Shown here: in pieces, positions 24,411-64,000 of the stretch
How positions within the stretch are numbered: the first letter of the stretch is position 1
Layout of the letters: each line of letters begins with the position of its first letter
Origin: Candidatus Iainarchaeum sp.
GTDB taxonomy: Archaea; Iainarchaeota; Iainarchaeia; Iainarchaeales; VGJJ01
Length of the DNA: 64,000 bases
Reading direction: 5' to 3'
Assembly: GCA_043803765.1 (NCBI GenBank)
Contig: JAZDJQ010000012.1
Location: 109,194-173,193 of the forward strand
Program-made: the position numbers and the translations under genes
Notes under the pieces: generated by a model
Seen by the model: the letters and a program-made list of their open reading frames with translations, nothing else
What the model was told of the DNA's origin: nothing
Databases searched by the model: none

Positions 24411-24419
24411 GTTATTTCT

Positions 24420-26100: not shown

Positions 26101-26107
26101 AGGGCAT

Positions 26108-41608: not shown

Positions 41609-42031
41609 TTATACGCATTTCCCGAATGAACATACTTTATTCTGGTCACCACAATTGTAAGTGAACGCGTATACGTTCAAATCGGAGATGAACGGACCGG
41701 AAATATCCGCACCGCACGCAAACTCAACGAGGGTATTGGCATCCGCACAGTAGTCGAATTTGTTTGCCTTCGTCATGTTGGCATCCGTAAAGGTCACATT
41801 TAAATCTCCCATCAATAGTGGATTAAATCCATCATCGGAATCCACGCATAAGGAAGCATTGGTATCGCCTACCGCTACAATAACAGCAGAATACGACTGA
41901 TTATTGTCCGTCACGGTCGTAGGAATCCCTGGAACGACTCGATTAAAGCCGGCCAATACCATTGGAACCATCACCAGGGCTATTAGTGTAAGACTACCTA
42001 AAAGGTAGAAAAAATTATTTCTTTTCAACAT
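41609..42031 (-). CDS. secreted Cys-rich protein (paralogue of 29477-29905)
   Basis: CVDSDDGFNP...DYC...LVEFAC. Confidence 0.75.
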   Translation of the reverse strand: MLKRNNFFYLLGSLTLIALVMVPMVLAGFNRVVPGIPTTVTDNNQSYSAVIVAVGDTNASLCVDSDDGFNPLLMGDLNVTFTDANMTKANKFDYCADANTLVEFACGADISGPFISDLNVYAFTYNCGDQNKVCSFGKCV

Positions 42032-42117
42032 ATTTAATCATCACTCCTCACTCCCAAAAGGGTAGTACATTCATCTAATCCAAATTGATATAATAATGTT
42101 CCTATAAAAAAACAATC

Positions 42118-42807: not shown

Positions 42808-42885
42808 AAAAAAAGCAGTGTTCCCTCCTTTATTACTATTTCCCTGCCCCCTCCTTTTTCTACTTGAAACACGTTCAAAAGATGC

Positions 42886-43203
42886 ATGCACGAACAACGT
42901 ATTATCAACAAAGTCATCCAGCTAGGAAAACTAGCCGGTGCCAAACGAAAAGTTCGGATAGAAGTAGGCGAATTATGTGATATTTCCCCTGAACATCTAA
43001 AGGAACACCTCAAAGGGCAAATTGTTGAATGGGAAATAGAAACCATTTACAGAAAAGCCAAAGTAAAATGTTCGTGCGGTTATAGTGGAACGCCTCGCAT
43101 TATTGAACGCGGGCATGATTTTGTGTTGTTCAATTGTCCTTCTTGTGGGGAAAAACCTATTGTAGTAGAAGGTGGAGAAATTAAGATTGTTGGAGTGGAG
43201 TGA
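42886..43203 (+). CDS. hypA: hydrogenase nickel metallochaperone HypA
   Basis: MHE start, VGEL, CxC and CxxC, GGE. Confidence 0.9.
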   Translation: MHEQRIINKVIQLGKLAGAKRKVRIEVGELCDISPEHLKEHLKGQIVEWEIETIYRKAKVKCSCGYSGTPRIIERGHDFVLFNCPSCGEKPIVVEGGEIKIVGVE

Positions 43204-47201: not shown

Positions 47202-47441
47202 CTATTTGGTTGGTTTTTCACTATCGCTGTCACTCATGTCTTCTTCATCGAACACCACTCCTTCCTTGATGATAAAGTCCCCTAACACGTTTTCGCAAAC
47301 GCTGCAATACATTATTTTCGGGAAGTCTGATTCTTCGGCAGGTGTAAGAAAAATGTCTTCTTTTTTGTGCGAAATGTTCATCTCATTCAGTTCTTTTATT
47401 ATTTCTTCTTTTGTTCGATGGCAAATCCAGCATTTTTCCAT
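47202..47441 (-). CDS. small Zn-finger-like protein
   Basis: CWIC...CSVC, acidic tail. Confidence 0.6.
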   Translation of the reverse strand: MEKCWICHRTKEEIIKELNEMNISHKKEDIFLTPAEESDFPKIMYCSVCENVLGDFIIKEGVVFDEEDMSDSDSEKPTK

Positions 47442-47463
47442 AACGAGCAACTCCTTTCATTTT

Positions 47464-48672: not shown

Positions 48673-48787
48673 CCTTCGAATAAACAGGGGTTGTTTTTAT
48701 TCTTCCCTGCGCGCCGCAGGATATTTTCCCTCTTTGAAAGAAAAAATACTGTTTTGGGCGAAAACCGCATCGTGAGTATTAATGCCT

Positions 48788-49753
48788 TTATTCAAATAAT
48801 TGGCTCAAACTGCTTCCTTCATTTGTCCGATAAATGGCTTCGGCGAATAGGTTTTCTAATGGAATTACTTCCACGTTTCCACTAGGCTGTTGAGGAATAG
48901 AATTGGTTACAAACATTCCATCTACGACTCGTGCAATGTTTTCACGTCCACTGCTGAACAACCCGTGCGTACAATACACATACACGCGTTTTGCCCCCAT
49001 TGCTCGCACTCCTTTCACGGCTTCAATAATCGTTCCCCCTGAATCAACCATATCATCAATAATTAACACGTTTTCTCCTTTCACTTCTCCTACTACTTTG
49101 AATTCGTGAATTTCTCCTTCTTTTTTCCTATACTTGTACCCAATCACGATATTTTCAATACCCAGTTTGGTGGCAAATCCTTTTGCACGAGATGTTCCTC
49201 CTGCGTCGGGTGACATGATAATGGCATTCTCCAAAAGAGTGGGGTGGTTTTTCTTTAGGTATTCGTACAGCATTCTTGAACTATACAAATTGTCAAATGG
49301 AATACGGTAAAAGCTGGGCAATAATGATGAGTGCGTGTCAATCGTAAGAATGCGGTTAGTATAGAGTGATAATATGTCCGATACGGCACGTGCGTTTACC
49401 GCAACTCTGGATTCGTCTTTCCTGTCTTGTCTGGAAAATTTCATGTACGGCAAAACGTCAATGAGTTCGTTAGCCGAAGATGAGTGCACGGCCTCGTTCA
49501 CCAATGCAAGCTGTAAAAACCAGTCGGCTGGTTTGAGTGATGAATCATGAATGAAGAAGCAGTTTTTTCTCCTGATGTTTTCCTTAATTTTGACTTTAAT
49601 TTCGTGGTCTCGGAACTCTTTGATGCTTATTTCATTCAGCTCGAATGTCCCATTCCGCTTGCATAGGTTTTCATAAATCTTTTTTGCGAATTCCCATGCC
49701 CCTCCGTTTGGATCAGCCAGAATAGAACATGGATTGTCAATGTGATTTGGCAT
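48788..49753 (-). CDS. prs: ribose-phosphate pyrophosphokinase
   Basis: PYMKFSRQDR, SPDAGG, IIDDMVDSGGT, THG. Confidence 0.95.
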   Translation of the reverse strand: MPNHIDNPCSILADPNGGAWEFAKKIYENLCKRNGTFELNEISIKEFRDHEIKVKIKENIRRKNCFFIHDSSLKPADWFLQLALVNEAVHSSSANELIDVLPYMKFSRQDRKDESRVAVNARAVSDILSLYTNRILTIDTHSSLLPSFYRIPFDNLYSSRMLYEYLKKNHPTLLENAIIMSPDAGGTSRAKGFATKLGIENIVIGYKYRKKEGEIHEFKVVGEVKGENVLIIDDMVDSGGTIIEAVKGVRAMGAKRVYVYCTHGLFSSGRENIARVVDGMFVTNSIPQQPSGNVEVIPLENLFAEAIYRTNEGSSLSQLFE

Positions 49754-49867
49754 GAATTACCCTCTCCAAACTAACCATGTGTAAAGAGGAATATAATGCA
49801 GGTGGTAGCAATCCAATTAGCCAGAAAAATGATACCCCATTATAAACAAGGAGGGAATCCTTCACCC

Positions 49868-52800
49868 ATGCTCCCTTCCTATATAAGGCTGCTTTGGATT
49901 GGTTTTTTTCTCCTTATTTTTTTCTCGCAGGCGTGGGCGGCCACCTCTTCTCTCACAGTAACTACCTGTTCTCAAGAGTTAGGAACAGTCATCATTGCCA
50001 ACTGTAGTGGATTGAATACAAGTAACGATACTTCCGACGTCACAATAGCCAAAAACGCAAGTCTGGGATTGGCTTGGAGTGATACCACTTTTTCTGGAAC
50101 TATTAGCAGTGTTACCATAACGATTCGGCACAGTGGGGCATCGGGCATTTCAGGAAGGGTGGGGCTTATTCTGTATGATGGTCAAAATAGTAGTGTGAGC
50201 AGCCCATTTTGTACCGAAAACACGAGCATATCAAACACGACTTCGTATACAACGCATACGATAACCGCATGCACTCCCACAGGAGGGTGGGACACAACAA
50301 AACTCAATAATTTGAAAATAAATGTGAATAATAATGATATAGGCATGCCGCAGAATATGTTTGTTTCCTATGTTTCCGTAGGCGTGACGTACACTCCTAT
50401 TGTCTGTGGAAATAGTATAGTTGAGAGTGGTGAAACATGTGATGATGGGGGTACGACCAGCAATGACGGTTGTTCTTCCACATGTCAAACGGAAACAGGA
50501 TGGACCTGTTCGGGAACCCCTAGTTCATGCACTCCTATTTGTGGGGATACCCTCATCAAAGGAAGCGAGGCATGCGATGGTGCCAATTTGAATTCCGCAA
50601 CATGCGTCACTCAGGGTTTTTCAGGAGGCACGCTCACGTGTAATGGAACATGCACTGGGTTTGTTACGAGTTCCTGTTATACGTGTGGAAATGTTACCAT
50701 TGAACTAGGGGAAACGTGTGATGGAACCTCATTAAATGGACAAACATGCAGTTCCCAAGGATACACGGGGGGAACACTCACATGCGCGGCTAATTGTTTG
50801 TCGTTTAATACGTCCGCGTGTACCTCCGCAACGTGCGGTAATAATATTATTGAAGGAAGTGAAACATGTGATGGAACCTCATTAAACAGTCAAACATGTT
50901 TCTCGCAAGGATACTTGAGTGGAACACTAGCATGTGCGGCAAACTGCAGTTCATTTGACACGAGTGCATGTGTTGCTATGGTCTGTGGAAACAATATAAT
51001 AGAAGGAAGCGAGGTCTGTGATGGAACCGCGTTAAACAGCGAGACGTGCACATCATTAGGTTTTGACTCGGGTTCCCTTGCATGTGAAAGCGATTGTTCC
51101 GCATACCAAACATCTTCCTGTGTAACAAGTGAAATATGTGGGAATAGCACTATCGCCGGTCCTGAAGTATGTGATGGATCTAATTTGGACAGCGAGACAT
51201 GCGTTTCTCAAGGATTTGAGTCAGGAACATTGACATGTGAAAGCGATTGCTTGAATTTTGATACGAGTTCGTGCGCCGCACCTATTACGACTACCACTCC
51301 AACATGCGGGTATGGTTGCTGTGGCTCTAGAACGTGTGATATTCCAACAGGTGAGGACTATTACACATGTCGAATTGATTGTTCATCTCCCTATTTGATT
51401 GTAATTCACTCTCTCTTACCCTCTTCTCTAGATGAGTTTTCTGTTGGTGACCAGGTTATTATTCGTATTTCTATTGATGCCGATTCGCAGCAGAATGTTC
51501 GTGCAGATAGCATTAAGATGATTGGCGAATTTGGAGAATTAGAATTGTTGGATGATGGCCAGCATGGCGATTTGGCAGCAGGAGATTTTATTTACGGAAA
51601 CTTTCTCACGGCGGAAAAGAGCAATACGCCTATTCTTTACCCTTTTACCATAAAGGCAACCATTGCTCAAACCACGCAAACATTAGAAAGCGGATATCAA
51701 ATTGTTCCATTGTTATACGTGAATGTGACGACTCCTCGCAAAAAGTATTCGCAGGGGGACATTATTACTTTTTCCGGCCGCCTTACTCAGAAAATGAAGC
51801 CCGTGCAGTACCCGGTAGATATTATTCTTGAAGCAGGAGACAAAATTTTGTTCACAAAGCAGATTATCCCAGACCAACAGGGAAAATTTTCATTTGACTA
51901 TCAAATATCTACAATTGACCCATTGGGAGAATGGAAACTTACCGCTACATCAAGGGATGATGGAGGCAATTTTGGATTCATCATTAAAAAATTGCAGATT
52001 TTTGAGCCTCAAACATTTGTTAATTTGGGTATTGAATTATTAACGAATAGTCAGACGATTTGGGAGCGAGGAAGCATACAAACAATCGTTGTGCGTGTTC
52101 GTGACCAATTAGATGAACTGGTTGAAAATGCAACCGTACAATTTATCCCCCCAGTAGGAAATCCCATTCCACTCATCGAGACGGAGTATGGCAATTATTC
52201 AGCAAAGTATTCCATTCCACAGTCCATTCCTAAAGGAAAACAACCCTTCATTGTTCGTGCGACACAGCAGACAGCTTTTTCAACAAAGCAGGGATCTAAA
52301 ACATTTGACATTCCTATTGGAGAAGCCTCCTTGACTATTCTCCTGCTTGAACCATCTTCATTCCTTACACAGGTGGGAGAAGAACTCTCTATTAGGTTGC
52401 GTGTTTCATATCCTCAGGGACAACCATTAAATGATATTGCATTCAATGCTTACCTGAATGGAAAAGAAGTTTCTTTTTTAGGGGTAGAACCCGGCATATT
52501 TGTTGGAAAATATGTAGTGGAATTAGGCGATTTGGGAAGACCTATTTTGAGCATTGCATTTGCAGACCAATATGACAACACGGGAACGCTTGACCTTCCA
52601 TTGATAGTGAATGGTATTTCCCCCCTCTATTATGTTCGCACGTACTTCCTAATCGTAGTGGGACTACTTGTAGTAATGAGTTTCCTATTCCAATCCAGTG
52701 CGAAATCATACCTTATTTCATTTCGAAGGAGAATGCTTGAAAGCAAAGAGAGACAGCTCTTGGCTAAAATAAAAGAGTTGCAGACGCAATACTATCAAAA

Positions 52801-52912
52801 AGGGGCGCTAAGTAAGGAGAGTTATCAAAAACTATATGCCCCTTATGCTATTGAATTACAGACTGTTCGTAACGAAATCATTAAAAACGCCGAAAAGGAT
52901 ACTAAAAAGTGA
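49868..52912 (+). CDS. large Cys-repeat surface protein
   Basis: signal peptide; 6 CG(N/D)xxxxxxExCD repeats; LLDDGQHGD; Ig-like beta domains; C-terminal TM and coiled-coil tail. Confidence 0.85.
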   Translation: MLPSYIRLLWIGFFLLIFFSQAWAATSSLTVTTCSQELGTVIIANCSGLNTSNDTSDVTIAKNASLGLAWSDTTFSGTISSVTITIRHSGASGISGRVGLILYDGQNSSVSSPFCTENTSISNTTSYTTHTITACTPTGGWDTTKLNNLKINVNNNDIGMPQNMFVSYVSVGVTYTPIVCGNSIVESGETCDDGGTTSNDGCSSTCQTETGWTCSGTPSSCTPICGDTLIKGSEACDGANLNSATCVTQGFSGGTLTCNGTCTGFVTSSCYTCGNVTIELGETCDGTSLNGQTCSSQGYTGGTLTCAANCLSFNTSACTSATCGNNIIEGSETCDGTSLNSQTCFSQGYLSGTLACAANCSSFDTSACVAMVCGNNIIEGSEVCDGTALNSETCTSLGFDSGSLACESDCSAYQTSSCVTSEICGNSTIAGPEVCDGSNLDSETCVSQGFESGTLTCESDCLNFDTSSCAAPITTTTPTCGYGCCGSRTCDIPTGEDYYTCRIDCSSPYLIVIHSLLPSSLDEFSVGDQVIIRISIDADSQQNVRADSIKMIGEFGELELLDDGQHGDLAAGDFIYGNFLTAEKSNTPILYPFTIKATIAQTTQTLESGYQIVPLLYVNVTTPRKKYSQGDIITFSGRLTQKMKPVQYPVDIILEAGDKILFTKQIIPDQQGKFSFDYQISTIDPLGEWKLTATSRDDGGNFGFIIKKLQIFEPQTFVNLGIELLTNSQTIWERGSIQTIVVRVRDQLDELVENATVQFIPPVGNPIPLIETEYGNYSAKYSIPQSIPKGKQPFIVRATQQTAFSTKQGSKTFDIPIGEASLTILLLEPSSFLTQVGEELSIRLRVSYPQGQPLNDIAFNAYLNGKEVSFLGVEPGIFVGKYVVELGDLGRPILSIAFADQYDNTGTLDLPLIVNGISPLYYVRTYFLIVVGLLVVMSFLFQSSAKSYLISFRRRMLESKERQLLAKIKELQTQYYQKGALSKESYQKLYAPYAIELQTVRNEIIKNAEKDTKK

Positions 52913-52916
52913 CGAT

Positions 52917-54107
52917 ATGAAAAAAATAGTGGGCATCGCACTTATTTTCTTTCTTATAGGGATTTTTCCATTTGTGAATGCAGAAATAACTCTCTCAACA
53001 AATCAAATGGAATACACGAAAGGAGAGACTATCATTTTTCATGTGGAAGGAGCCCCTTTTCAATCAACCGTCATTAATGGGAAAATGGATAATCGTATTC
53101 AATTTAGTCTAAATGTGGTGCTAGACGATGCGGGAAAAGCGGATGTGAATTACACGATCCCCTTTACAAACGTTTCAGGGGAATGGGAACTTTCTTTGAG
53201 TGGAGAAAGCAAGTCCAATTATGTGATGATTTCTCCTTCCAACGCATCATCTATTTTTATCATCACATTCAACAGTCCAACCCCATCAAAATATGCGCGG
53301 CTAGAGACGATTCCCATCTCGGTGAATGTGACGAATGCAGGAATAGGGGTGAATAATGCAGTCGTACATGCATGGACTCCTGAAGGAAAAGAAATCATCC
53401 TTCAAAATATTATGGATGGACGATATGAGGGGAGTTTTCATGCTCCTCCATCGCAACTATTAGAAAACTGGCTCTTTTTCGTTACCGCAGAAGCAGAAAC
53501 GGAAAATGGGTTGCGCGGTGGAGAGAATTCTATTGCATTAGAGTTCAAGCCTGCCATATTACAATTAGATGTTCTCACTCCCCTTCCTTCTGTTATTGGT
53601 TTTCAGGAAACCATTTCTATCACTTTCCAGTTTTCTTACCCTGAAGGAAAAACGATTGATGTTGTTTCCGATATTACATTTGGAGAAGAAAAGTTAACAG
53701 CTACTCCAATTGGAAATGGAAAATACACGGTTGAGTTTTCTCCTAAAAAAGATGGACTAAACATATTGAAAGTAAGTGCTTTTGATGAGTTTGGAAACAG
53801 TGTGTTGCGGGATTTTCCATTCCAGGTTCGTTCACAACTTGAAACGATTTGGGAACAAAATAAAATGCTTATTTTTGTCGTTGGGAGTGCATTAATTCTG
53901 TTGCTCATCTTTGTAGGATACCGCAGGGAAAAATCCATTGCTAAAAACAAAAACAATGAACAAATACAAAAGTTACAGAAAGAACTTCAAATATTGCAAA
54001 AAGCATACTACAAGGAGCAGACGGTCGACCGTAAAACGTTTGAGAGTGAATCATCTCGAATACAGAATGAAAAAAAAGCTCTCGAAACCAGGATACAAAA
54101 GGAATAA
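52917..54107 (+). CDS. surface protein with Ig-like domains, TM and cytoplasmic tail
   Basis: same architecture as the C-terminal half of the previous gene. Confidence 0.8.
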   Translation: MKKIVGIALIFFLIGIFPFVNAEITLSTNQMEYTKGETIIFHVEGAPFQSTVINGKMDNRIQFSLNVVLDDAGKADVNYTIPFTNVSGEWELSLSGESKSNYVMISPSNASSIFIITFNSPTPSKYARLETIPISVNVTNAGIGVNNAVVHAWTPEGKEIILQNIMDGRYEGSFHAPPSQLLENWLFFVTAEAETENGLRGGENSIALEFKPAILQLDVLTPLPSVIGFQETISITFQFSYPEGKTIDVVSDITFGEEKLTATPIGNGKYTVEFSPKKDGLNILKVSAFDEFGNSVLRDFPFQVRSQLETIWEQNKMLIFVVGSALILLLIFVGYRREKSIAKNKNNEQIQKLQKELQILQKAYYKEQTVDRKTFESESSRIQNEKKALETRIQKE

Positions 54108-54116
54108 ATAGCTCAA

Positions 54117-55082
54117 ATGGATGGACATGTTATGAGTTTCTTTGGAAATGCTACTAATGGACCTAAAAAAGACCCGTCCAAAAAGGCTTCCATTGGGGTG
54201 GTTATTCCTCCTGCTGAATTGAAAGAAATCGCCATGAATCGTACAAACGTTCAAGTTACTCCTCACAAGAATGCTAAAATAAGTGAGGTGAAGGCCTTTC
54301 AAAAGGAAATCCTATCTCCTTCCCTAGCAAAAAGCAGTACTCCTACACAGAATGTTCTCCCCACGTATATTCCTGGTTTAGATGAAATGATTGAGGACAA
54401 TGGATTTGAGCGCGGTTCTACTATTCTTATAACAGGTGGCGCGGGTTGTGGAAAAACAACTATTTGTTGCCAAATGCTCTATAATGCTATTAAAGATGGG
54501 GAAAAAGTAGTGTATATTTCATTAGAAGAGGAAGTGAAAAAGCTCAAGGCCCACATGAAAAAGAATTTTGGGTGGGATTTTAGTTTATATGAAAAAAACA
54601 ACCAGGCTACATTCATCCAGATGGACCCCATTGATGTGGCGAGAAAAATAGAGAGTCAAGTTGCTGCGCAGAAAGGAAAATTACTCATTGAGATGGAGGA
54701 TTTTGATTTTCCATTCAAACCAGACCGCATCGTGCTTGACTCTCTTTCCGCGCTGAGTATTGCGTTTGAAAACTCGGAGAGTTATAGAAAATTCATTCGT
54801 CATTTGTTCAAACGATTTGAAGAGACTAACTCTCTTGTTTTTATGATTGGAGAGAATGAACAAAATCCAAGGATGTATTCTCATGCGGGCGTAGAAGAGT
54901 ATTTGGTAGACGGTGTTGTTGTTTTATATAACATCAAATCAGGTTCGCAGCGAATAACAGCCCTGGAAATTCTCAAGTTGCGTTCTTCTAAACATGCCAA
55001 AAAGATTGTTCCATTCAACCTGACGAAGACCGGTATTGAAGTTTTTCCCGACCAAGAAATTTTTGAAGAGCCCAATTCTTAG
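54117..55082 (+). CDS. KaiC/RAD55-like ATPase
   Basis: GGAGCGKT, ISLEE, RIVLDSLS, EILKLR. Confidence 0.92.
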   Translation: MDGHVMSFFGNATNGPKKDPSKKASIGVVIPPAELKEIAMNRTNVQVTPHKNAKISEVKAFQKEILSPSLAKSSTPTQNVLPTYIPGLDEMIEDNGFERGSTILITGGAGCGKTTICCQMLYNAIKDGEKVVYISLEEEVKKLKAHMKKNFGWDFSLYEKNNQATFIQMDPIDVARKIESQVAAQKGKLLIEMEDFDFPFKPDRIVLDSLSALSIAFENSESYRKFIRHLFKRFEETNSLVFMIGENEQNPRMYSHAGVEEYLVDGVVVLYNIKSGSQRITALEILKLRSSKHAKKIVPFNLTKTGIEVFPDQEIFEEPNS

Positions 55083-55115
55083 AGAATGACAAAAGAATGA
55101 AAACAGAAAAAAAGA

Positions 55116-55458
55116 TTAAACCTTAATCACTTGGTCGCATAATTGGGCTATTTCAGATCGAATCTCTGGGTTTACTTGGTCGCGCAGGGAAAGTAAAACA
55201 CCCCCCATTCCTTGGATGCGGAGCTTCGTGAGAGTACCGTGAATAAATCGCCCGTTGTTATTAATGGCAGCAACATCATTGCTATTCAAATAGGCTGGAT
55301 TGACCATGGGATTAACATTACCAATGTTGCGCATGTTATTCGCATTGCCCATATTCATATTTGGATTACCACGGGCATTTCCCCTCGCAGGATAGTTACC
55401 CCCATAGTCGTTTTGCGAGTAGCCCGTTTCATACGGGGGGGCGGGGGGCGTCTTCCAT
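55116..55458 (-). pseudogene. N/G-rich protein frameshifted in a G7-C-G6 tract
   Basis: ATG 55458 reads MEDAPRPPV*; removing one G gives a 113-aa ORF MEDAPAPPYETGY... Confidence 0.55.
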
Positions 55459-55512
55459 AAATAACCTAAAAATTCCCTCTTTATATACTCTTTGCGGACG
55501 ATTTGATTCAGT

Positions 55513-57081
55513 ATGGATATCCTATTCAAACGTTTTTCTATTAGCTTGGGCAAAACCGACTTGTTCCACGATGAGAGTTTCGGCATTTCGTATGGTAGCA
55601 AAGTCGGGTTGATTGGCCGAAATGGTTCGGGGAAAACCACGATGCTTAAGGCGATTATTGGAAAGGCTGATTTTAATGGAAAAATAGAATGCGCTGGAAG
55701 AATAGGGTATTTTGCCCAGCATATTGATGTCGATTCTAATCTCACTTTTCTTGAAGAATTGGAAAGAGGAATTAATCATTCAAAGTATGCGGATAAGATT
55801 ACCCAAATCGAGTCTCAAATGGCCAATCCTATTGTATACAATGATATGACTAGACTGGCCGCTCTCACGGAGGAATATACGCTTCTCCAGTCAAAGATGG
55901 CTCGTGAAACGCAATCCTCGAATGCGGTAAACGTAAAAGAGGTATTGAAAAAACTCCGTGTGGATGAAAGTTTGTTTTCGATGAAAGTTGGGAATCTTAG
56001 CACGGGACAAAAAGCCATTCTTTCATTAGCGCGGATTTTTTGCGCCGATACGGACATTTTGCTATTGGATGAACCAACCAATCATCTTGATTTTGCACGC
56101 CTCCATATTCTGGAAGACCATATCAAACAATTCAATGGAACGGTTATAGTAGTAACCCATGATCGTTTTTTCCTCAATCGTATTGCAGACACTATTCTCA
56201 AAATAGAAAATGGAAAAGTAATAAAATATAATGGTAATTATGATGTCTACAAGCGTGCGCAATTAGAAAAATTCCACGCGCAACGAAAGGCATACGAAAA
56301 CGAGGAAAATTATCGCCGTATTCAGTTAGAAAAAATAAACAAGATTGGCACCGCGCCCAAAAATATTAGGCAGAGCGAGTATCGGAGACGTATGTTGGAT
56401 GCCCGTGAGGAAGTCGAAGCACCCGATTTGGATGAAAGCTCTTTTGAAGTGCATTTTAACGCTAAACCGATGAAAGCGCCCTATGTAGTAGAAACGAAAA
56501 ACTTGAGCGTAGGGTATGAATCTCCTCTCATTAAGGATATTGAGCTTGCTATTGGCGCACACCAGCGATTTGTTATTATTGGGGAAAATGGGTGCGGAAA
56601 AACAACACTGCTCAAGACGATTGCGAATAAAATTTATCCGCTGAAAGGAGAAATCAACCTTGCGAGTGAAGCAAAAATAGGATACATGGACCAGGATTTG
56701 AAAAATTTGAATGAGGAAAACACGCTGTATGAGGAAATTTTTGCCATGCTTCAAGACAAAGGAGTAGCCCGCCAAAATCTTTCCATGATTGGCTTTCGTA
56801 AAACGTATGAAGTGGAAAAGAAAATCTCCTCGTTGTCTATGGGGGAAAAGATGCGCCTCCAGTTGTTGAAAATCCTTCTCGACCAGCCCAACTTTTTGCT
56901 TTTAGATGAACCAACCAATCACTTGGACATTGATGCAAGGGAAATAATTGAAAACGCTTTTCTGAATTATGATGGAACCATTCTTGCCGTTTCCCACGAC
57001 CGGTATTTTATCCAAAAAGTAGCCAACCGCATTGTGAAAGTACAGAATAAGAAGCTCGTGCATATAAGAAAAATAGAATGA
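55513..57081 (+). CDS. ABC-F family ATPase
   Basis: two NBDs (GRNGSGKT, GENGCGKT), LDEPTNHLD twice, HDR, no TM. Confidence 0.95.
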   Translation: MDILFKRFSISLGKTDLFHDESFGISYGSKVGLIGRNGSGKTTMLKAIIGKADFNGKIECAGRIGYFAQHIDVDSNLTFLEELERGINHSKYADKITQIESQMANPIVYNDMTRLAALTEEYTLLQSKMARETQSSNAVNVKEVLKKLRVDESLFSMKVGNLSTGQKAILSLARIFCADTDILLLDEPTNHLDFARLHILEDHIKQFNGTVIVVTHDRFFLNRIADTILKIENGKVIKYNGNYDVYKRAQLEKFHAQRKAYENEENYRRIQLEKINKIGTAPKNIRQSEYRRRMLDAREEVEAPDLDESSFEVHFNAKPMKAPYVVETKNLSVGYESPLIKDIELAIGAHQRFVIIGENGCGKTTLLKTIANKIYPLKGEINLASEAKIGYMDQDLKNLNEENTLYEEIFAMLQDKGVARQNLSMIGFRKTYEVEKKISSLSMGEKMRLQLLKILLDQPNFLLLDEPTNHLDIDAREIIENAFLNYDGTILAVSHDRYFIQKVANRIVKVQNKKLVHIRKIE

Positions 57082-57198
57082 GCACAGCGGCTTTGCTCCC
57101 ATGACCTTGCGTTTCCCTCACTCCGCTAGTGAGAAACTAATTCGTAATCAAATTAATCATATGTATCTTGTTTGGATTTCGTATTGGACATTCCCAAC

Positions 57199-58122
57199 TT
57201 ATGAGAGGGCATCTCGGAGAAACAAAATAATCTCCTTTTCATATTTGGTGACCATTCCAATGTAACTGTGTCCGAGTAATCGGTCTAGAATGAGAGTGGA
57301 ACTCACACCATTGGACAACAATTGCTGATGGAACGCCTTACTCATCGTGTAATCCAGCGTCGAATCCGGAACACCATGCAAAATAAGGAAGGGCGAGTCT
57401 CCCCCACTCACATGAGTAACAGGACTGGCAAGAGCCCAAGCACTAGGGCAATCACGATAGGCACATCCCATGTAGGTAGTAATGGGTCCAGAACCACTAA
57501 GGGCAGGGAAATCCACGACCCCAAATAAGTCCACCACGGCCTGAACGTTACTTCTTTGTTCCAAATTTCCCCCAACCGTTCCCTCCAATTCGGATATTCC
57601 ATAACTCGTTCCTACCAGCGAGGCCAAATTTCCTCCGGAAGAACTACCAACCACAGCAATTCGGGTTGGATCTATTTTGTATTCGGCTGCGTGAGCCCTA
57701 ATCCAGCGAATGGCTCCCTTCGAATCATGAATGGCGGCAGGGAAATGATTGGAGGAAGAAGTCGATAACCGATAATTGATGCTAATGGCCACAAATCCCT
57801 CTTCCGCAAGGGCACGACAAAAATTCCCGCACAAACTCTTGTCCCCACCGGTCCAACCGCCGCCATGAATGTATACAACCGCAGGGAAAGCATTCGTTGG
57901 CTTCCCAGGAGTGACCTTTGGGATTTCACGGGTGTAAACGTCCAACTTCAAGGTCTCCGTGCCAACGGTAGCGTAGGGAATGTCGTATATCACTTTCACC
58001 CCTGAAACCCCTTTCTGAACAATCGCTTGCCCCGCTGGAACGGATTGTGCAGCCACCATAATAGCGAAGACTATCAAAAGAACACCCGCATATACCAAAA
58101 ATTGCATGCCCTTCTGCCACAT
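57199..58122 (-). CDS. secreted alpha/beta hydrolase (HGGG-type esterase)
   Basis: HGGGW, INYRL, GSSSGG, LHG..D, H. Confidence 0.9.
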   Translation of the reverse strand: MWQKGMQFLVYAGVLLIVFAIMVAAQSVPAGQAIVQKGVSGVKVIYDIPYATVGTETLKLDVYTREIPKVTPGKPTNAFPAVVYIHGGGWTGGDKSLCGNFCRALAEEGFVAISINYRLSTSSSNHFPAAIHDSKGAIRWIRAHAAEYKIDPTRIAVVGSSSGGNLASLVGTSYGISELEGTVGGNLEQRSNVQAVVDLFGVVDFPALSGSGPITTYMGCAYRDCPSAWALASPVTHVSGGDSPFLILHGVPDSTLDYTMSKAFHQQLLSNGVSSTLILDRLLGHSYIGMVTKYEKEIILFLRDALS

Positions 58123-58398
58123 GACACCGAAACATAGTCATAGGCAAATATATAAATCGTGCCCATTTATAACGAACTTTGGCCGTATTACATCGAACGA
58201 CAGTCTCATGTACATAATGGGGAAAATAGTCGTATCCTCTTTGGACGATTACTCCCTAAAAAGAAAATGAGTGCACTTTGACTTTACAGGAAAATGCTCT
58301 AAGCGGAAGCCGAAATAAAAAACATTTCAAGCCGCTTATCCAAGATATTTCTTGAACCATTGCATCATCAACTCAATCTCACACCCGTTTCAAACCGG

Positions 58399-59544
58399 TC
58401 ATGTCTTCAACAGCCAGTCGAATATTTCTTTCTCTCCGCATAGCAGAGTCGTTTTGGCCTTCTTGAATTCAGTGGAGAATTCCTTTAGCGATTCGTTTTC
58501 ACGAGCAGGGGGGGTTTTCTCCCAACAAACATTTACGGCGCGAACAGCTTCTCCTTCTTTCATCACTAAATCCACTTCATGCTTCCCCTTCCAGTAATAC
58601 AAATCATGGTTTCGGCGCTTACATTCAATAGCGACTGCATTCTCCGCCAACCGACCCGTATCAGGAGTAAACGACTTGGTGGCATACTGCTGCATCCCCA
58701 AATCATAGGCATACACTTTTCGCGGCCGCGTAAGAGATTGTTTCATGGAATAGGCGAAAAAAGGAACCTGAAAAACCAAAAAGGATGTTTCCAATGCATC
58801 TAAATACTGCCGAATCGTGTCATAGCTCAACCCCGTAAATGAACGGAGCTGTTTCAAACTGGTTTCCTTCCCCGTATTAGTCAAAAGATAATAGGCAAAA
58901 TTCCGCAATCCTGTTATGTCACGAATATTGTATCGCGACGCAATATCTTTAACCAGTGCCAGCTCAAAATAGGATTGAAACAGTTTTTGTTTTTCATCCG
59001 GATGCAACGTTACTTCAGGATAACCCCCCGCGCGCAAATAATCATCTAACTTTCTGCCCGTGACGCGTTGATACTCCTTAAATGATAAAGGCAAAACCTG
59101 AAATCCAATCCCTCTCCCACCCAAAGATGTAGCAAATTCACCACTCAACAATTTGGCGCTCGAACCGGTCACAATGACTTGACACTGGCGCGTGTCCACC
59201 GCTCGACGAACCCATTTCTCCCAACCATCAATCAATTGAATTTCATCCAAAACAATCGTATCCTTCGCACTCAAACCAAAAACAACATCATCCAGCAAGG
59301 ACACATTCAATTCACCCACCAACGAAGGATCTTCCAGATTCACATATCGGCGAGTGGTTTTGGACGGGAGTTGATCCAGAATTCTGCGCGCCAGCGTGGA
59401 TTTTCCAGCTTGCCGAGGGCCATAGAGGTAAACCACATGCCGGTTGCTCACATATCGTAAAACATCCGACTCAATATCACGAGCAAACGTGGAACCCTTC
59501 AATTTCCACTTTTCCAGCAACTTATCCAATTGGGCAGAATCCAT
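58399..59544 (-). CDS. AAA ATPase with DUF4143 domain
   Basis: GPRQAGKS, LDEIQ, TGSS, GGYP, KVYAYDLG, ENAV, EVD. Confidence 0.92.
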   Translation of the reverse strand: MDSAQLDKLLEKWKLKGSTFARDIESDVLRYVSNRHVVYLYGPRQAGKSTLARRILDQLPSKTTRRYVNLEDPSLVGELNVSLLDDVVFGLSAKDTIVLDEIQLIDGWEKWVRRAVDTRQCQVIVTGSSAKLLSGEFATSLGGRGIGFQVLPLSFKEYQRVTGRKLDDYLRAGGYPEVTLHPDEKQKLFQSYFELALVKDIASRYNIRDITGLRNFAYYLLTNTGKETSLKQLRSFTGLSYDTIRQYLDALETSFLVFQVPFFAYSMKQSLTRPRKVYAYDLGMQQYATKSFTPDTGRLAENAVAIECKRRNHDLYYWKGKHEVDLVMKEGEAVRAVNVCWEKTPPARENESLKEFSTEFKKAKTTLLCGEKEIFDWLLKT

Positions 59545-59742
59545 AGACCAAAAAGAGAGTAAAAGGACTTAAAAAAGGTTACGTTATATCGTAATCGTTT
59601 ATAAAAGAAAGAATCGCTAACATCACAAAAGAGCCACACGAAAGGGATTGATTAATGGCTATTCGGAATGAAATAACAGCATTGTCAAATCTCCAAACCA
59701 CATGCATGACGAAAAGGGGACGAGCATGTTGTTTCGCATTTT

Positions 59743-59796
59743 ATGCCCCTGGCAGGGTAAGAGTATTGGGATAGGAGCCCGCGGTTTCCTCTATGA
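59743..59796. repeat. 54-bp intergenic repeat, copy 1
   Basis: 43/54 identical to 63860-63913. Confidence 0.85.
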
Positions 59797-59843
59797 AAAA
59801 ACTACGGAAAATGAAGAGTATTAATACCTATTCTATAGACAAA

Positions 59844-60806
59844 TCAGTATGATGTCGTGCGAACCAGGTGATAGGGTCTCCAATCTGGATGCTTGATTTG
59901 GGTAGCTAACCACAAATGGTCATTCACGTGTATAGGTGTGATAGCAGGATATTTCTTCCTCACTTCATCCGCAATTTTTTCTAAGGCGTAAACGGTATTA
60001 CCCCTAATTTCATTCTCCTCTTGACTATCACGTATCAGCAACTTTTGATTATCCACTTGGTTGGCAAGTGGCTTGGAGTAAAGAAGAATTCCCTTTTCCC
60101 TGAGAATTTGAGGCACTTTGTAGTCCGCAAGTCCTGTTAGCAAGTGAAGATTCTTCAATTTTCCAATCTTTTTCTTTTGGAACACATTTGCGATGTCCGA
60201 GACAAGCAACTGAGCACGTTTATGAAAAAAACACGTTTTTCCCTTGAACGTGCTGGTATCGTTAAAAGAAGGAAATCTATTAATTATTTTTTCGAGTAAA
60301 AGCATAGCATCGTAGTTGGATTGCTCAATTATCTCTGATAAATCCCTCGATTTTGAGGCAAGGAGTCCAGCACCGCACTCACGAATGTGTTTCAGTCGTT
60401 CATCCAGGAGTGGTATCTCAACATTGCCACGCAAAATATGGGAAAACTTGGTTCGATTCAATTTCGACAGCGATTCAGGAGTGAGCTCGAATTCCTTTTC
60501 TTCGATTCTGCGGAAGAGTGCAGCCATCATACCATATGCTCCATCTAACGGTCTGCCTTGATATTGAATGGTCCACTTTGGGCGCCCCCAATAACTAAAA
60601 CTTACCGCGTTGCATACTAGAAGAAAGTTCAAGCGTTCCGACTCGGACAAGCATGAAATATCAATTGGTGCTTGATTGAACCAGTGCGCGACGTGTTCTT
60701 CGGAGAAGGTCTGGGCAAACCGTTTGGCTGCAGCATCGTCGATTTGAACTAAATCCGAATTTTCAGCAATAAATTTAGCGCTAGTCAAAACCGGATTCAT
60801 CATCAA
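59844..60806 (-). CDS. queuosine salvage (DUF2419/QNG1-like) N-glycosylase
   Basis: FHKRAQLLVSD, ADYKVPQIL, ENEIRG, DHLW, PYH.VRTTSY. Confidence 0.9.
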   Translation of the reverse strand: MMMNPVLTSAKFIAENSDLVQIDDAAAKRFAQTFSEEHVAHWFNQAPIDISCLSESERLNFLLVCNAVSFSYWGRPKWTIQYQGRPLDGAYGMMAALFRRIEEKEFELTPESLSKLNRTKFSHILRGNVEIPLLDERLKHIRECGAGLLASKSRDLSEIIEQSNYDAMLLLEKIINRFPSFNDTSTFKGKTCFFHKRAQLLVSDIANVFQKKKIGKLKNLHLLTGLADYKVPQILREKGILLYSKPLANQVDNQKLLIRDSQEENEIRGNTVYALEKIADEVRKKYPAITPIHVNDHLWLATQIKHPDWRPYHLVRTTSY

Positions 60807-60813
60807 TCATTCC

Positions 60814-61080
60814 TCAGAAGAATTGTCGATACCATCGTTCATATTCCTTGTGGTTTCCCACGAAATAGAATCGGACTTCCTTGTTCTCTTCGAACACACG
60901 ATAAATTATTCGGTCGGAACCAGATTCATCCACGAAAAACCGTGCGCCTTTCTTGAGATGACGCTTTTGAGGAAACTCCAGAATCTTCTTAATCTTCTTG
61001 GCTACACGCTCTTTGGCAGTGGAGTCCAACGTATCAAAGTATTTCGGCCATTCTTCAACAAAGGTGGGATGGTAAGAAAT
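60814..61080 (-). CDS. RelE-like toxin, start codon unclear (ATT?)
   Basis: EEWPKYFDTLD...RIIYRV...FVGNHKEYERWY. Confidence 0.75.
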   Translation of the reverse strand: MSYHPTFVEEWPKYFDTLDSTAKERVAKKIKKILEFPQKRHLKKGARFFVDESGSDRIIYRVFEENKEVRFYFVGNHKEYERWYRQFF

Positions 61081-61086
61081 GCAGCA

Positions 61087-61329
61087 TCACTTCACGTGTT
61101 TCGAATACTTACCCAATGCTTCATCTGCATTTAGAAGCTTTCGCTTTCCTGCCTTGATGTCTGCGTCAATTTGGTCCAGCTTCCGATTAACCAACTCGAC
61201 CTCACCCAAATGATGCTCTCCAAAATTGATTAAGGCCAATCTCACGGCTTCAGATTGTGTATTGGCATACCCCTCTTCCACCATCGTTTCCGCAATCGCC
61301 TTGGTTTTCCCTTTCAAAATAACATTCAT
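61087..61329 (-). CDS. ribbon-helix-helix antitoxin-like protein
   Basis: MVEEGYANTQSEAVRLAL; GGTGA SD. Confidence 0.8.
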   Translation of the reverse strand: MNVILKGKTKAIAETMVEEGYANTQSEAVRLALINFGEHHLGEVELVNRKLDQIDADIKAGKRKLLNADEALGKYSKHVK

Positions 61330-61396
61330 ACAGTCACCAATATTCATAACCGATTAAATGATTTAAATATGTATCGATTATGATTCAAAATGAATT

Positions 61397-61423
61397 ATGC
61401 CCTATTCGGGATTTGAACCTGCA
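61397..61423 (-). repeat. degenerate tRNA 3'-end fragment
   Basis: minus strand reads GCAGGTTCAAATCCCGAATAGGGCA (T-loop plus acceptor 3' strand). Confidence 0.65.
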
Positions 61424-61465
61424 TTTCGCAGTAGGTGCCATTTTATGGGCTACTTATCCGCTAAA

Positions 61466-61633
61466 TTAGTCAAAAAATCGATCTTTTGGCTTTCGTAAAA
61501 AGTTCTCCACATCCAACGGATAGTAATCAATAGACCCATCCTTATTCTTCCCAACTGTTTGACCATACATAAATTTTTGGAAAGCATTCCAACGATTTTT
61601 GCCAATTCGTGCAATGACTTCTTTTTTGTCCAT
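61466..61633 (-). CDS. 55-aa protein absent from the ORF track
   Basis: GGAGTGGTGAT SD; MDKKEVIARIGKNRWNAFQKFMYGQT...DRFFD*. Confidence 0.65.
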   Translation of the reverse strand: MDKKEVIARIGKNRWNAFQKFMYGQTVGKNKDGSIDYYPLDVENFLRKPKDRFFD

Positions 61634-61646
61634 ATCACCACTCCTT

Positions 61647-62624
61647 TCAATTGAGTCTCCGATGCTTTATCTGACTAAGGAATTCTTCATAGCAAAATTT
61701 AACAAAAAACGATTCGTTTCCCGATTCAACCGATCGAATAAGTTCTTTGAAGTAAGCCGCGGTATTCTTTGAAATATTCAGGATAGGATAGCCCGCATCT
61801 TGGAGAACTTTATTGAACAACAATCGGCACATGCGCTTGTTCCCATCCTTAAATGGGTGAATGAGATATAATTTCAAATGCACAAGCCCGGCCAGTTCTA
61901 ACGGATGAATATTCTTATTTTTATCCAACCATACAAAAAAAGTATCCAGCTCCTTCTCCACTTTGGCAGGAGCAGGCGGACGATAATCAATCTCCTCGCT
62001 TTTCATTGTCAATGGATTAAATCTGGCGATTATGCGTTGGTCGTCACGCAGCTGCCCAGGACTTTTGTCTTCGAAAGTTGTCATTACGATTCCATGTAAG
62101 CGCAGAATATCTTTCTTGTTCCATTGAATACTGGGTAAATAGTTGAATCCTGTAATCATCGAACTCGAAATAATAACTTTACTATCCATGGTTAGTTTCT
62201 TTTTTCGCTTATCAATAATTTCAAACGCGGTCTCGACATCGGCATAATCGACGTCCACTCCTTCCGTACGAAGAGTGGTAAAAACAAAATGAACGACTTG
62301 ATTCTTATCATATTCTTCTCTTTGTTTCTTGCTTAGTTTTTGAAAACGAGAAATAAAGTTATCCTTTACTTGCTCAACTCCGGCCAGTTCTTTTCTTGAA
62401 AGAATATAAAATTGATATTGATCAAGAATTTTATCGTATAGAGAAGTAAGAGTTTGTTTTACTTTCTCTTGCAGCTCTTTTTCTTTTTTCTTAAATTCAG
62501 TTTCAGAAGGCTTCGTTCTCCCAAGATAGAGACGAACCTTACGAACTTTTTTCCCGATACGATAACTTTTTCCCAAATAATAGTATTTGTTTCCTTTCAC
62601 CGTTCTTTCGATTATTTTACCCAT
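61647..62624 (-). CDS. Fic family protein with N-terminal beta-rich domain
   Basis: HPFKDGNKRMCR; ERTVKGNKYYYL. Confidence 0.92.
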   Translation of the reverse strand: MGKIIERTVKGNKYYYLGKSYRIGKKVRKVRLYLGRTKPSETEFKKKEKELQEKVKQTLTSLYDKILDQYQFYILSRKELAGVEQVKDNFISRFQKLSKKQREEYDKNQVVHFVFTTLRTEGVDVDYADVETAFEIIDKRKKKLTMDSKVIISSSMITGFNYLPSIQWNKKDILRLHGIVMTTFEDKSPGQLRDDQRIIARFNPLTMKSEEIDYRPPAPAKVEKELDTFFVWLDKNKNIHPLELAGLVHLKLYLIHPFKDGNKRMCRLLFNKVLQDAGYPILNISKNTAAYFKELIRSVESGNESFFVKFCYEEFLSQIKHRRLN

Positions 62625-62631
62625 AACAATA

Positions 62632-62704
62632 TGACTACATTTAAGTATATAAAATGTAGTCACAACTTGGAGACTACGTCATTTGAAACAAGTTGTAGTC
62701 ACAA
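62632..62704 (-). promoter_or_regulatory. TATA box flanked by inverted-repeat operator
   Basis: TGACTACATTT-9-AAATGTAGTCA; second TGTAGTCACAA at 62694. Confidence 0.7.
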
Positions 62705-62824
62705 TTGCCCCAAGCGTGGGATGTTCTATCTTGTTCATTAGTAATGCACACTATTGTATAAGGTTGAATTTGTAGATAGTATTAGCGCATAAAGTCTAAC
62801 ATCGTAAAACAAATTGTTATCCGC

Positions 62825-63775
62825 CTAGTTTTCTTTTTTCATTTGAGCATAGTTTTCTTTTAGCTGTTCGACCAGAAAGTGAGTAAACGGGCCATATTCA
62901 GTACGATGCCCCTTTTCTTGGGTTTCAAAATAGGGATCACGTTTCAATACGGGAATATTGGTAAAGGGAAATCCATTGAACTGCAAAATATAGTTCATGA
63001 TTAATCGTGCCATTCGTCCGTTTCCATCCGCAAAGGGGTGAATAGTAGTGAACATGCAATGGGTCATGGCTGCGAGTTCAACAGGGTGTATTAAATCATT
63101 ATTTTTCTGATAATCTTCCATCATTTCTTTCATCATTTTGGGAACTTGAGAATGGGGAGGAAAATGAAACGAGCTCACACGAAGGAAAACGTTAACCGGA
63201 CGCCAGATTCCTTTGTATTGGTCGTAATCCGGAATTTTGTTTAGCAGAGTCGTATGCCATTCCAAAATGAGTTTTTCGTCTAACTCTCGTTTTTGAGTCA
63301 AGCTTTCTTCAAATTGAACGAGACACCGCTCCATGTTCAATACTTCCAAGCGTTCACGTTGGCTCCCCAACCGCGCCCCCAACCGAAGTATTCGCTGGGT
63401 TTCATCTAACGAGAGAGTGCTTCCCTCAATCGCATTCGTGTTAGTTATAAATTTATCTCGTTCGCGCTCAACCCATTGCTTCTTTTGTTTAGCACTTAAT
63501 TGATCGAGAAACAATTGTGTTTCTTGCTTAATGGCTTCCAGCTTGACTGCAGTCTTGACATCAATAAAACGAGTTTTGGATTTTAATAATTGTTCTCGAT
63601 AAAAAGATTTAACTTTTTGGTCGAGCTTTTTTCTAAACGACGCTAATTTTGATTTAGCCGGATTAATAGCCCCTAAATAGAGATACACCTTTCGAACTTT
63701 TTTCCCGATGCGGATACTCCGTTCCAGATAGTAGTATGGTTTCCCTTTCACGGTTCGCTGAATGACCTTTCCCAT
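62825..63775 (-). CDS. Fic family protein with N-terminal beta-rich domain
   Basis: HPFADGNGRMAR; TNAIEG; QRTVKGKPYYYL. Confidence 0.92.
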   Translation of the reverse strand: MGKVIQRTVKGKPYYYLERSIRIGKKVRKVYLYLGAINPAKSKLASFRKKLDQKVKSFYREQLLKSKTRFIDVKTAVKLEAIKQETQLFLDQLSAKQKKQWVERERDKFITNTNAIEGSTLSLDETQRILRLGARLGSQRERLEVLNMERCLVQFEESLTQKRELDEKLILEWHTTLLNKIPDYDQYKGIWRPVNVFLRVSSFHFPPHSQVPKMMKEMMEDYQKNNDLIHPVELAAMTHCMFTTIHPFADGNGRMARLIMNYILQFNGFPFTNIPVLKRDPYFETQEKGHRTEYGPFTHFLVEQLKENYAQMKKEN

Positions 63776-63778
63776 AAT

Positions 63779-63858
63779 AGTTATACCCACAAAGAAGTAT
63801 ATAAAATGTGGTTATAACTTTTGTAACTACAATTCTTCTTCTATTTTATAGTTATAAC
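63779..63858 (-). promoter_or_regulatory. TATA box flanked by inverted-repeat operator
   Basis: AGTTATACCCACA / TGTGGTTATAACT (12/13) plus a second weaker pair. Confidence 0.65.
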
Positions 63859-63859
63859 G

Positions 63860-63913
63860 ATGCCCCGAGCGGGGTAGGCACATTGGGAAAGGAGCCCGCG
63901 TATTACTCTATGA
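63860..63913. repeat. 54-bp intergenic repeat, copy 2
   Basis: ATGCCCCGAGCGGGG...AGGAGCCCGCG...CTCTATGA. Confidence 0.85.
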
Positions 63914-64000
63914 TTCCATTAAGACGCACGAGGTAAATAACCCTTTCGTGATGTCCGTTAGTGTCCGATTTCTCAAACCCGTCAGGGACGTCAACCATTT

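Follow-up and report, generated by a model that had tools for sequence, protein, structure and literature searches.

A probable integration hotspot at the 3' end of tRNA-Glu(CTC) in Candidatus Iainarchaeum sp.

Tandem accretion of inserts at tRNA and tmRNA genes has been described for the ssrA islands of Dehalococcoides (PMC3146451) and for the integrative and conjugative, integrative and mobilizable, and cis-mobilizable elements (ICE/IME/CIME) of streptococci (PMC5704250), and tycheposons build tRNA-anchored genomic islands in Prochlorococcus (bioRxiv 10.1101/2020.12.28.424599). A comparable region is described here from a DPANN archaeon of ~1 Mb, Candidatus Iainarchaeum sp. (assembly GCA_043803765.1, 19 contigs, 1.02 Mb; called G000 below, other genomes bearing further G numbers and contigs C numbers). 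The window, meaning the whole stretch of 64,000 nucleotides (nt) that was analysed, is G000:C12:109194-173193, and its position 64000 is the end of the contig. Ribosomal protein L35Ae, FtsZ and a tRNA-Tyr with a short variable arm mark the genome as archaeal. Positions 59743-64000, a row of small genes parted by short repeated sites, quite probably belong to a hotspot of integration at the 3' end of tRNA-Glu(CTC), of which they would be the outer part.

As far as the available parts of the ssrA-island and streptococcal accounts extend (PMC3146451, PMC5704250), this locus shares with them direct repeats of an RNA-gene 3' end that part successive inserts, a tyrosine integrase by the RNA-gene-proximal junction of intact elements (here that of the relative G007), older integrase-less inserts pushed outward, and contents that differ among close relatives. 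It departs from them, within the same reach of those sources, in its ~1-Mb DPANN host, in its many single-gene units of ~1 kb (Fic, toxin-antitoxin (TA)-like), in the same cores bounding inserts at look-alike places that are not tRNA genes, and in that no transfer machinery was seen. Tycheposon islands, as the available part of that account presents them (10.1101/2020.12.28.424599), likewise combine a streamlined genome with several tRNA anchors, partial tRNA copies that flank elements, newcomers that push older elements inward, and scattered degenerate remnants and extra partial tRNAs. According to the same part, tycheposons carry their own recombinase and replication modules, whereas no replication gene is among the annotated array genes here, and to the extent of the tests made neither the organisms nor the integrases are related. 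Full-text term searches of a limited collection found no literature on tRNA-anchored arrays in Iainarchaeota or Diapherotrites.

Archaeal tyrosine integrases of the non-partitioning (pNOB8) type target tRNA genes. As in elements of that type, an undivided integrase gene adjoins the tRNA junction (in the relative G007) and the attachment site takes in the 3' part of the tRNA, the likeness here holding at the level of Pfam PF00589 only. Integrons, which comprise the integrase IntI, an attI site and attC cassettes, have been reported in Archaea too, and the array resembles them in its rows of small, mostly single-gene units parted by short recombination sites. In contrast to integrons, its sites have no attC architecture and no GTTRRRY/RYYYAAC pair and are tRNA-end copies of 13-55 nt, its units have their own promoters and lie in either orientation, and the integrase is not fixed at the head of the array. 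The region belongs to an ordinary type of genomic island, here in a little-studied lineage, and no special cassette mechanism is demonstrated.

Sites, tRNA end and module borders

A first-pass annotation, made from the letters of the window, had singled out four strings as copies of a tRNA 3' end that separate short gene units. All four stand on the plus strand as given (TGCCCCTGGCAGGG at 59744, TGCCCTATTCGGGATTTGAACCTGC at 61398, TGCCCCAAGCGTGGGAT at 62706 and TGCCCCGAGCGGG at 63861), are co-oriented, and lie between open reading frames (ORFs) at spacings of 1654, 1308 and 1155 nt; recomputation of the motif pair 59743-59796 and 63860-63913 again gave 43 identities in 54. The proposed gene content holds for the queuosine-salvage (Q-salvage) gene, the two Fic genes and the small ORFs, while the TA label is only weakly backed, by ParD and ParE matches that fall far short of threshold. 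The features, with protein lengths in amino acids (aa), are as follows.

59743..59797, minus strand: site 1, long form, the distal attachment-site copy; core 10/13 against the tRNA-Glu(CTC) end, with an element-derived arm 5' of the core
59844..60806, minus strand: Q_salvage gene of the queuosine-salvage family, 320 aa (Pfam PF10343, E 8e-61)
60814..61074, minus strand: small ORF, weakly ParE/RelE-like (Pfam ParE-like_toxin, E 0.26, below cut-off)
61087..61347, minus strand: small ORF, 86 aa, weakly like a ParD antitoxin (NCBIfam TIGR02606, E 0.049, below cut-off)
61398..61422, minus strand: site 2, reading GCAGGTTCAAATCCCGAATAGGGCA on that strand; part of the tRNA-Glu T arm retained; core 9/13
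61450..61650, minus strand: small ORF, 66 aa; no match in family searches
61647..62663, minus strand: Fic-domain protein, 338 aa (Pfam PF02661, E 2e-19); motif HPFKDGNKRMCR, internal TLRTEG
62706..62722, minus strand: site 3, reading CACGCTTGGGGCA on that strand; core 11/13
62825..63790, minus strand: Fic-domain protein, 321 aa (Pfam PF02661, E 1e-22); canonical motif HPFADGNGRMAR, internal TNAIEG
63860..63914, minus strand: site 4, long form; core CCCGCTCGGGGCA, 13/13 against the tRNA-Glu(CTC) end; arm with ACGCGGG and CCCGC of the T stem
63903..64000, minus strand: gene X (unknown), last 31 codons, cut by the contig end; with site 4 it makes up 141 nt common to the start of C11

The tRNA end predicted from these sites, the 22-mer GGTTCAAATCCCGCTCGGGGCA, was searched in 61 genomes and 12 loci were then examined with ARAGORN. 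It occurs with at most two mismatches in 36 of the 61 genomes and perfectly in 11, which bears out the reading of the sites as tRNA 3'-end copies. ARAGORN calls tRNA-Glu(CTC) at ten of the loci, nine with the exact predicted end and one, in G003, with a single mismatch; the remaining two are a tRNA-Glu(TTC) in G017 and a locus in G002:C2 with three array copies only and no tRNA. The inserts of the window are accordingly bounded by repeats of this end, matched at 13/13 positions by site 4 and at 11, 10 and 9 of 13 by sites 3, 1 and 2. Site 2, described in the first pass as T-arm-like on the minus strand, does keep the T-arm segment of tRNA-Glu in GCAGGTTCAAATCCCGAATAGGGCA. Site 1 reads TCATAGAGG..GCGGGCTCC..TACCCTGCCAGGGGCAT on the minus strand and is 81% identical over 53 nt (BLAST) to the distal site of G005; a scan of the intergenic regions of 48673-59843 found no additional site. 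An origin of sites 1-3 as copies of foreign tRNA-Glu variants was considered and is unsupported, no tRNA with a site-1-like end being found in 196 genomes. An Rfam search of 58000-64000 and four tRNA-trailer regions returned no family except tRNA.

Comparison with relatives places the module borders on the cores. Window 62733-63873 is 92% identical to G004:C48:1065-2206, and the match stops exactly after ATGCCCCGAGCGGG, beyond which G004 continues into the true T loop of the tRNA and the window into 21 unrelated bases followed by CCCGCGT of the T stem; in the arm of site 4, that is, 21 nt stand in exchange for the 7-nt T loop. Because the two sequences part exactly after ATGCCCCGAGCGGG, the long-form motif can be read as the 3' part of the tRNA with its T loop replaced, as would be expected of the element-side arm of an attachment site. 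A tRNA with an intron in the T loop was also considered for this motif and rejected, as neither tRNA tool calls one at the end of C12 or the start of C11. The 14-mer ATGCCCCGAGCGGG recurs exactly at C18:127 and C18:8014, with ~0.008 chance recurrences expected per 2 Mb. At the other border of the Fic module, homology to G004 begins at 62733, 11 nt beyond site 3, and the protein of Fic gene 62825-63790 is 94% identical to the Fic protein encoded directly behind tRNA-Glu(CTC) in G004.

The TA-like module gives a second comparison. Window 60816-61402 is 86% identical in DNA to G001:C10:4148-4734, where perfect 13-nt cores CCCGCTCGGGGCA, one short and one long-form, border the module, and RpoK and another core gene lie outside them. 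The G001 module lacks the Q-salvage gene, its long-form site following directly on the TA-like pair, and site 2 is the same module border as a perfect CCCGCTCGGGGCA in G001; the orthologous spacer in G000 is 79 nt long and empty. Occupied and empty loci thus differ by inserts whose borders lie at the core in three cases: the Fic border in G004, the TA-like module of G001 against the empty spacer of G000, and the separation of a 249-aa gene from PheRS-beta described below. The array of G005 runs from the tRNA through a Fic gene, a copy and two ATP-grasp genes to a long-form copy with the same arm, and in the stretches examined in G013, G010 and G009 no copy was found besides the tRNA's own end.

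A tyrosine recombinase adjoins the same tRNA in a relative. In G007, a gene for a 473-aa protein (PF00589, E 1e-22) starts 54 nt past tRNA-Glu(CTC); the element to which it belongs is cut by a contig end at 5.6 kb and is the only intact-looking one. In G000, a perfect site at C18:127-140 is followed by a G007-type leader and MHYEMLQHKTTDESLHHFARKYEL, the first 24 codons of a homologue of this integrase, at which the contig ends. Related integrases lie directly behind tRNA-Glu(TTC) in G004 (61% identical), tRNA-Asn in G005 (58%) and tRNA-Asp in G008 (55%), and a more distant one (34%) behind tRNA-Met on C14 of G000, with two copies of the tRNA-Met end downstream; the C17 integrase of G000 has no tRNA-like sequence nearby. 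The integrase found with tRNA-Glu(CTC) matches the XerA-like NCBIfam model only weakly (91.5 bits, cut-off 220). The first pass had further supposed that a cassette mechanism operates at more than one tRNA. Copies do occur at more than one, and a scan of the tRNA 3' ends of G000 found five behind tRNA-Tyr and the two behind tRNA-Met; as to the mechanism, integrases of one clade adjoin tRNA-Glu(CTC), tRNA-Glu(TTC), tRNA-Asp and tRNA-Asn in relatives, and ordinary integration by tyrosine integrases, with a build-up of remnants that have lost the integrase, is the simplest reading.

As to the modules themselves, both Fic proteins have the catalytic motif and an internal (S/T)xxxE(G/N) motif, and the two genes share a TATA-like upstream block of their own. 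Motif HPFKDGNKRMCR of Fic 61647-62663 has K at the position of G in canonical Fic, as in Doc-type proteins, and the activity of this protein may differ from that of its neighbour with HPFADGNGRMAR. The ORF 60814-61074 is in frame from the stop of the upstream ORF, its first ATG/GTG/TTG falling only at 61029, and may be truncated at the N-terminus or have an unusual start.

The missing tRNA gene and a second locus

Searches of G000 with Rfam RF00005 and with ARAGORN, introns being allowed or not, gave 46 tRNA calls for 45 distinct genes, and the only expected species absent is Glu(CTC); no tRNA found by these searches ends in CCCGCTCGGGGCA. The first-pass annotation had placed a minus-strand tRNA beyond position 64000 and had named the lack of a matching tRNA in the genome as evidence to the contrary. 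That lack is literally the case in this incomplete assembly, while the matching tRNA-Glu(CTC) is present in relatives. As the tRNA sits within ~300 nt of a contig end in three relatives, the region tends to break assemblies.

Gene order suggests where the tRNA may lie. In all five annotated relatives that reach that far (G013, G009, G012, G004 and G003), the gene next to tRNA-Glu(CTC), in divergent orientation, is that for deoxyhypusine synthase (DS), and the sole DS copy in G000 is at C14:165-1031, at the left contig edge, where C14:1 aligns in the DS upstream region ~130-150 nt from the tRNA start of the relatives. In G003 the order is DS, tRNA-Glu, ~6.5 kb of other genes, MgtE and a homologue of window gene 47202-47450, and the window read leftward from its end gives the same order. 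The left end of C14 and the right end of C12 are both free and have the expected polarity. On this evidence the assembly gap that separates the window end from C14 would contain the tRNA-Glu(CTC), and probably also the whole integrase-bearing element, from the integrase through gene X to the long-form site.

The contig end itself leads to a second locus. Contig ends in G000 share 141-nt overlaps, as in a de Bruijn graph, and over 141 nt the end of C12 is identical to the start of C11 in reverse complement. Divergence between the contigs sets in exactly at the outer (3') edge of site 4, where C12 goes on with the Fic module and C11 with the stop codon of a conserved 249-aa gene. In 13 of 16 congeners this gene and PheRS-beta lie tail to tail at most 136 nt apart; the distance is ~710 nt in G008 and G015, and in G002 the two genes are separated. 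In G000 they are split between C11 and C18, each abutting a site, and PheRS-beta is followed by GTGCCCGCTCGGGCAT, the core minus one G (12 of 13 positions match). Read from PheRS-beta outward, C18 holds the following.

C18:11159-12814: PheRS-beta
Next: AbiEii/AbiEi pair
C18:8014-8027: site
Next: helix-turn-helix (HTH) gene, DUF6036 nucleotidyltransferase, NUDIX hydrolase
C18:5883-5896: site (1 mismatch)
Next: two phosphoenolpyruvate (PEP)-utilising/PPDK-like genes, phosphatase
C18:127-140: site
Next: integrase start

Together with C11:1-150, C18:1-11160 makes an island of at least 11 kb bounded by tRNA-Glu-type cores. The chromosomal bases just outside its junctions, GGGATGAA and TTCATCCC, are inverted repeats, from which we infer that the ancestral sequence may have been a hairpin resembling the attachment core; this secondary attachment site is reconstructed from the two junctions of G000 only. 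The chromosomal junction reads GGGCA and the element-side junction GGGGCA, and strand exchange is for that reason tentatively placed at the 3' edge of the core, near GGGCAT.

Gene X with the long-form site precedes both the C11 flank and the Fic module of the window, and is thus probably the end of the integrase-bearing element. The motif at 63861, which the first pass had compared to a distal terminus, is instead internal to the array and bounds on the right an element that recurs at a locus without a tRNA. Since the same element end is present at the second locus, the assembly graph forks at 63860; the gene X stretch would occur at the two places either as two copies or as two population variants, and if the element is repeated and differs in coverage, this would account for its interior having been left out of the bin.

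From these observations an order of events can be proposed. An element with a tyrosine integrase, its own attachment site holding a copy of the tRNA end, would recombine with the last ~13-25 nt of the tRNA gene, and each integration would add a further tRNA-end copy, placed at the distal border of the insert. Repeated integration and loss of the integrase would give rise to a row of small modules parted by tRNA-end copies, here Fic, Fic with a small ORF, and the TA-like pair with the queuosine-salvage gene. The copies would decay with distance from the tRNA (core matches 13/13, 11/13, 9/13 and 10/13), and those of long form at 63860 and 59743, having kept the element-side arm, would mark the right ends of elements. 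The integrase element would also be present at the second locus, between the 249-aa gene (C11) and PheRS-beta (C18), or would alternate between the two in the population. Any present-day mobility may be surmised from these arrangements.

Several observations weigh against this account. The tRNA-Glu(CTC) is not in the G000 assembly, so that its adjacency to the window is inferred, and the array in the window has no integrase gene inside it. Sites 1, 2 and 3 deviate from the tRNA core at 3, 4 and 2 of its 13 positions, and a tRNA ending like site 1 was sought in 196 genomes of the order and found in none. Homologues of window genes 40190-40741 and 42886-43203 flank the tRNA in G009, G013, G005 and G004, and window 40680-42960, which is syntenic with the tRNA position of G009, G013 and G004, holds no remnant of tRNA-Glu. 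Among the relatives, G003 is the only one that supports the proposed arrangement; because the tRNA sits elsewhere in the other four, the genus would therefore have at least two arrangements of the tRNA-Glu locus. A core-like hairpin was found in none of the spacers between the 249-aa gene and PheRS-beta in 12 relatives. Of five loci of Fic homologues found in other genomes, two are repeats of the G004 contigs, and the three distant ones (58%, 59% and 30% identity) lack both a tRNA within ~6 kb and attachment-like repeats at their flanks. Scans of public contigs, finally, showed no excised or circular form: a stretch of 48 nt from gene X had 0 matches in metagenome contigs, and the long-form arm motif had 0 in viral contigs and 1 in metagenome contigs, on a contig of 2765 nt, with no free element. 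Among the sequencing runs searched, no more than two, both from groundwater, contained 0.05 of the sampled words, and reads of the source sample did not come up.

Alternative placements and mechanisms

The best surviving alternative keeps the integration and moves the array. The window array would then occupy a secondary look-alike site with no tRNA adjacent, and tRNA-Glu(CTC) would lie by DS on C14, unlinked to C12. The island of C18 and C11 has the same sites at a place that is not a tRNA, as does G001; G002:C2 holds three perfect copies and no tRNA; and most congeners put the tRNA elsewhere relative to the window genes. However, G003 shares the order DS, tRNA-Glu, variable region, MgtE and 47202-47450 homologue, all four sites are oriented as for a minus-strand tRNA to the right, and the free ends of C14 (left) and C12 (right) have the expected polarity. 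Such a placement appears improbable, though it deserves some weight.

A mechanism closer to that of integrons appears somewhat less likely again. A resident integrase would move recombinase-less cassettes singly in trans at short cores, at several tRNAs and at look-alike sites. The units are indeed small (0.7-1.7 kb), with one or two genes and no integrase; blocks of homology between genomes end at cores; congeners differ in the order and content of the modules; a TA-like unit of ~0.7 kb stands alone in G001 between two perfect 13-nt repeats, with core genes outside; and one Fic module is enclosed by copies of the tRNA-Ile(GAT) end in G002, another by tRNA-Tyr copies in the window. Nothing in this sets the mechanism apart from decay and occasional mobilization of remnants in cis, however. 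The Fic modules lie in both orientations relative to the tRNA, each Fic gene has a TATA-like upstream region of its own, sites 2 and 3 are degenerate in the core, and TA-like homologues in G005, G004, G007 and G002 have no recognizable border site. There is no fixed integrase with a promoter at the head of the array, the G007 integrase being the first gene of an inserted element.

That the sites are mere GC-rich hairpins, terminator-like palindromes at gene ends that resemble a tRNA by chance, is hardly credible: the cores are partly palindromic (CCCCG..CGGGG, CCCTG.CAGGG, CCCA....TGGG), the genome has 28 CCC-N(2-6)-GGGGCA strings, and the count of a post hoc pattern in the window is not significant alone, but the 22-nt prediction, T loop included, matches real tRNA-Glu(CTC) genes exactly, a T-arm segment is kept in site 2, homology borders between genomes fall on the cores, and an integrase adjoins a site in G007 and C18. 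The pattern in question, TGCCCYN{4,6}GGG, was built post hoc from the four sites and has 4 matches on both strands of the 64-kb window, exactly these sites; shuffled windows have a mean of 1.79 matches and 14 of 100 reach 4, so that the count is not significant by itself, and what stands out is the clustering on one strand within 4.2 kb. Covariation of the core palindromes, as for recognition of a hairpin, was likewise considered and set aside: the palindromes are not centred alike in the different sites, and partial self-complementarity is already a property of the tRNA-Glu end. Accretion at the 3' end of tRNA-Glu(CTC) by elements with a tyrosine integrase is the reading preferred here.

Other tRNA-linked elements of the genus

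Repeats of tRNA ends are found elsewhere in the window and genome. Downstream of tRNA-Tyr (window 16571-26681) there is a robust array of five copies of GTCCGGGAGGCGGGAC with at most 2 mismatches each, at 24390, 21942, 20996, 20170 and 16571. In two of them the repeat extends to the native tRNA trailer, and one unit contains a third Fic gene (24420-25412). At tRNA-Phe (G000:C1:55758-56600) a copy of the 3' end lies 770 nt downstream, with a truncated Fic-like ORF (an open frame of 146 aa) between.

About ten tRNAs (Lys-CTT, Lys-TTT, Gln-CTG, Val-TAC, Ala-GGC, Arg-TCT, Arg-GCG, Arg-CCG, Leu-CAG and Pro-CGG) have a near-copy of their own last ~16 nt 40-190 nt downstream. These mini-elements have a constant hairpin and an altered T loop ahead of the copy and fall into two families (..AAAAGGCCGGTTCTGAATC.. 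and ..AAAGGGGTGCGTTCCGAATC..), different tRNAs having the constant part in common while the 3' part is specific to each. Of 13 genome-wide matches to the constant motif, 8 are tRNA-downstream sites. Mini-elements occur in relatives at other tRNAs (tRNA-Ile in G002, tRNA-Gln in G007), and they match no Rfam family. Their positions in G000 are:

C1:48906-50270
C2:10497-10560
C3:128-210
C4:39149-39260
C7:2910-2986
C14:42534-42635
C18:91776-91860
C18:92975-93085
C18:114320-114411

A broader scheme can be imagined, in which tRNA ends (Glu, Tyr, Ile, Phe and others) and look-alike hairpins would be docking sites, a diversifying clade of tRNA-targeting integrases would reshuffle Fic, TA-like, AbiE, NUDIX and other recombinase-less, promoter-bearing modules singly in trans, and the mini-elements of 40-190 nt would be the empty or minimal form; it is regarded as doubtful. 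Ordinary tRNA-anchored accretion, as proposed above for tRNA-Glu(CTC), remains the favoured reading of the window array.

Two further observations concern single genes. At G000:C18:73429-73503 ARAGORN calls a tRNA-Ile with anticodon TAT, and because only two CAT tRNAs are present besides, this suggests that AUA decoding relies on a UAU anticodon rather than on a modified CAU tRNA. The RadA/Rad51 gene beside the G002 array (C2:57375-59936) contains an intein that has a LAGLIDADG domain (Pfam Intein_splicing, LAGLIDADG_3).

DPANN archaea are host-dependent organisms of tiny genome, and the gain and loss of their accessory and defence genes are poorly described. Attachment repeats such as these break assemblies exactly at the tRNA, which may consequently be scored wrongly as missing. 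No new kind of mechanism is revealed by the locus, which offers concrete sites, an integrase, and pairs of empty and occupied places for testing at the bench. In one genus of these archaea, much of the accessory traffic, including Fic genes, TA-like pairs, an AbiE pair and other small genes, passes through attachment sites at tRNAs and at their look-alikes.

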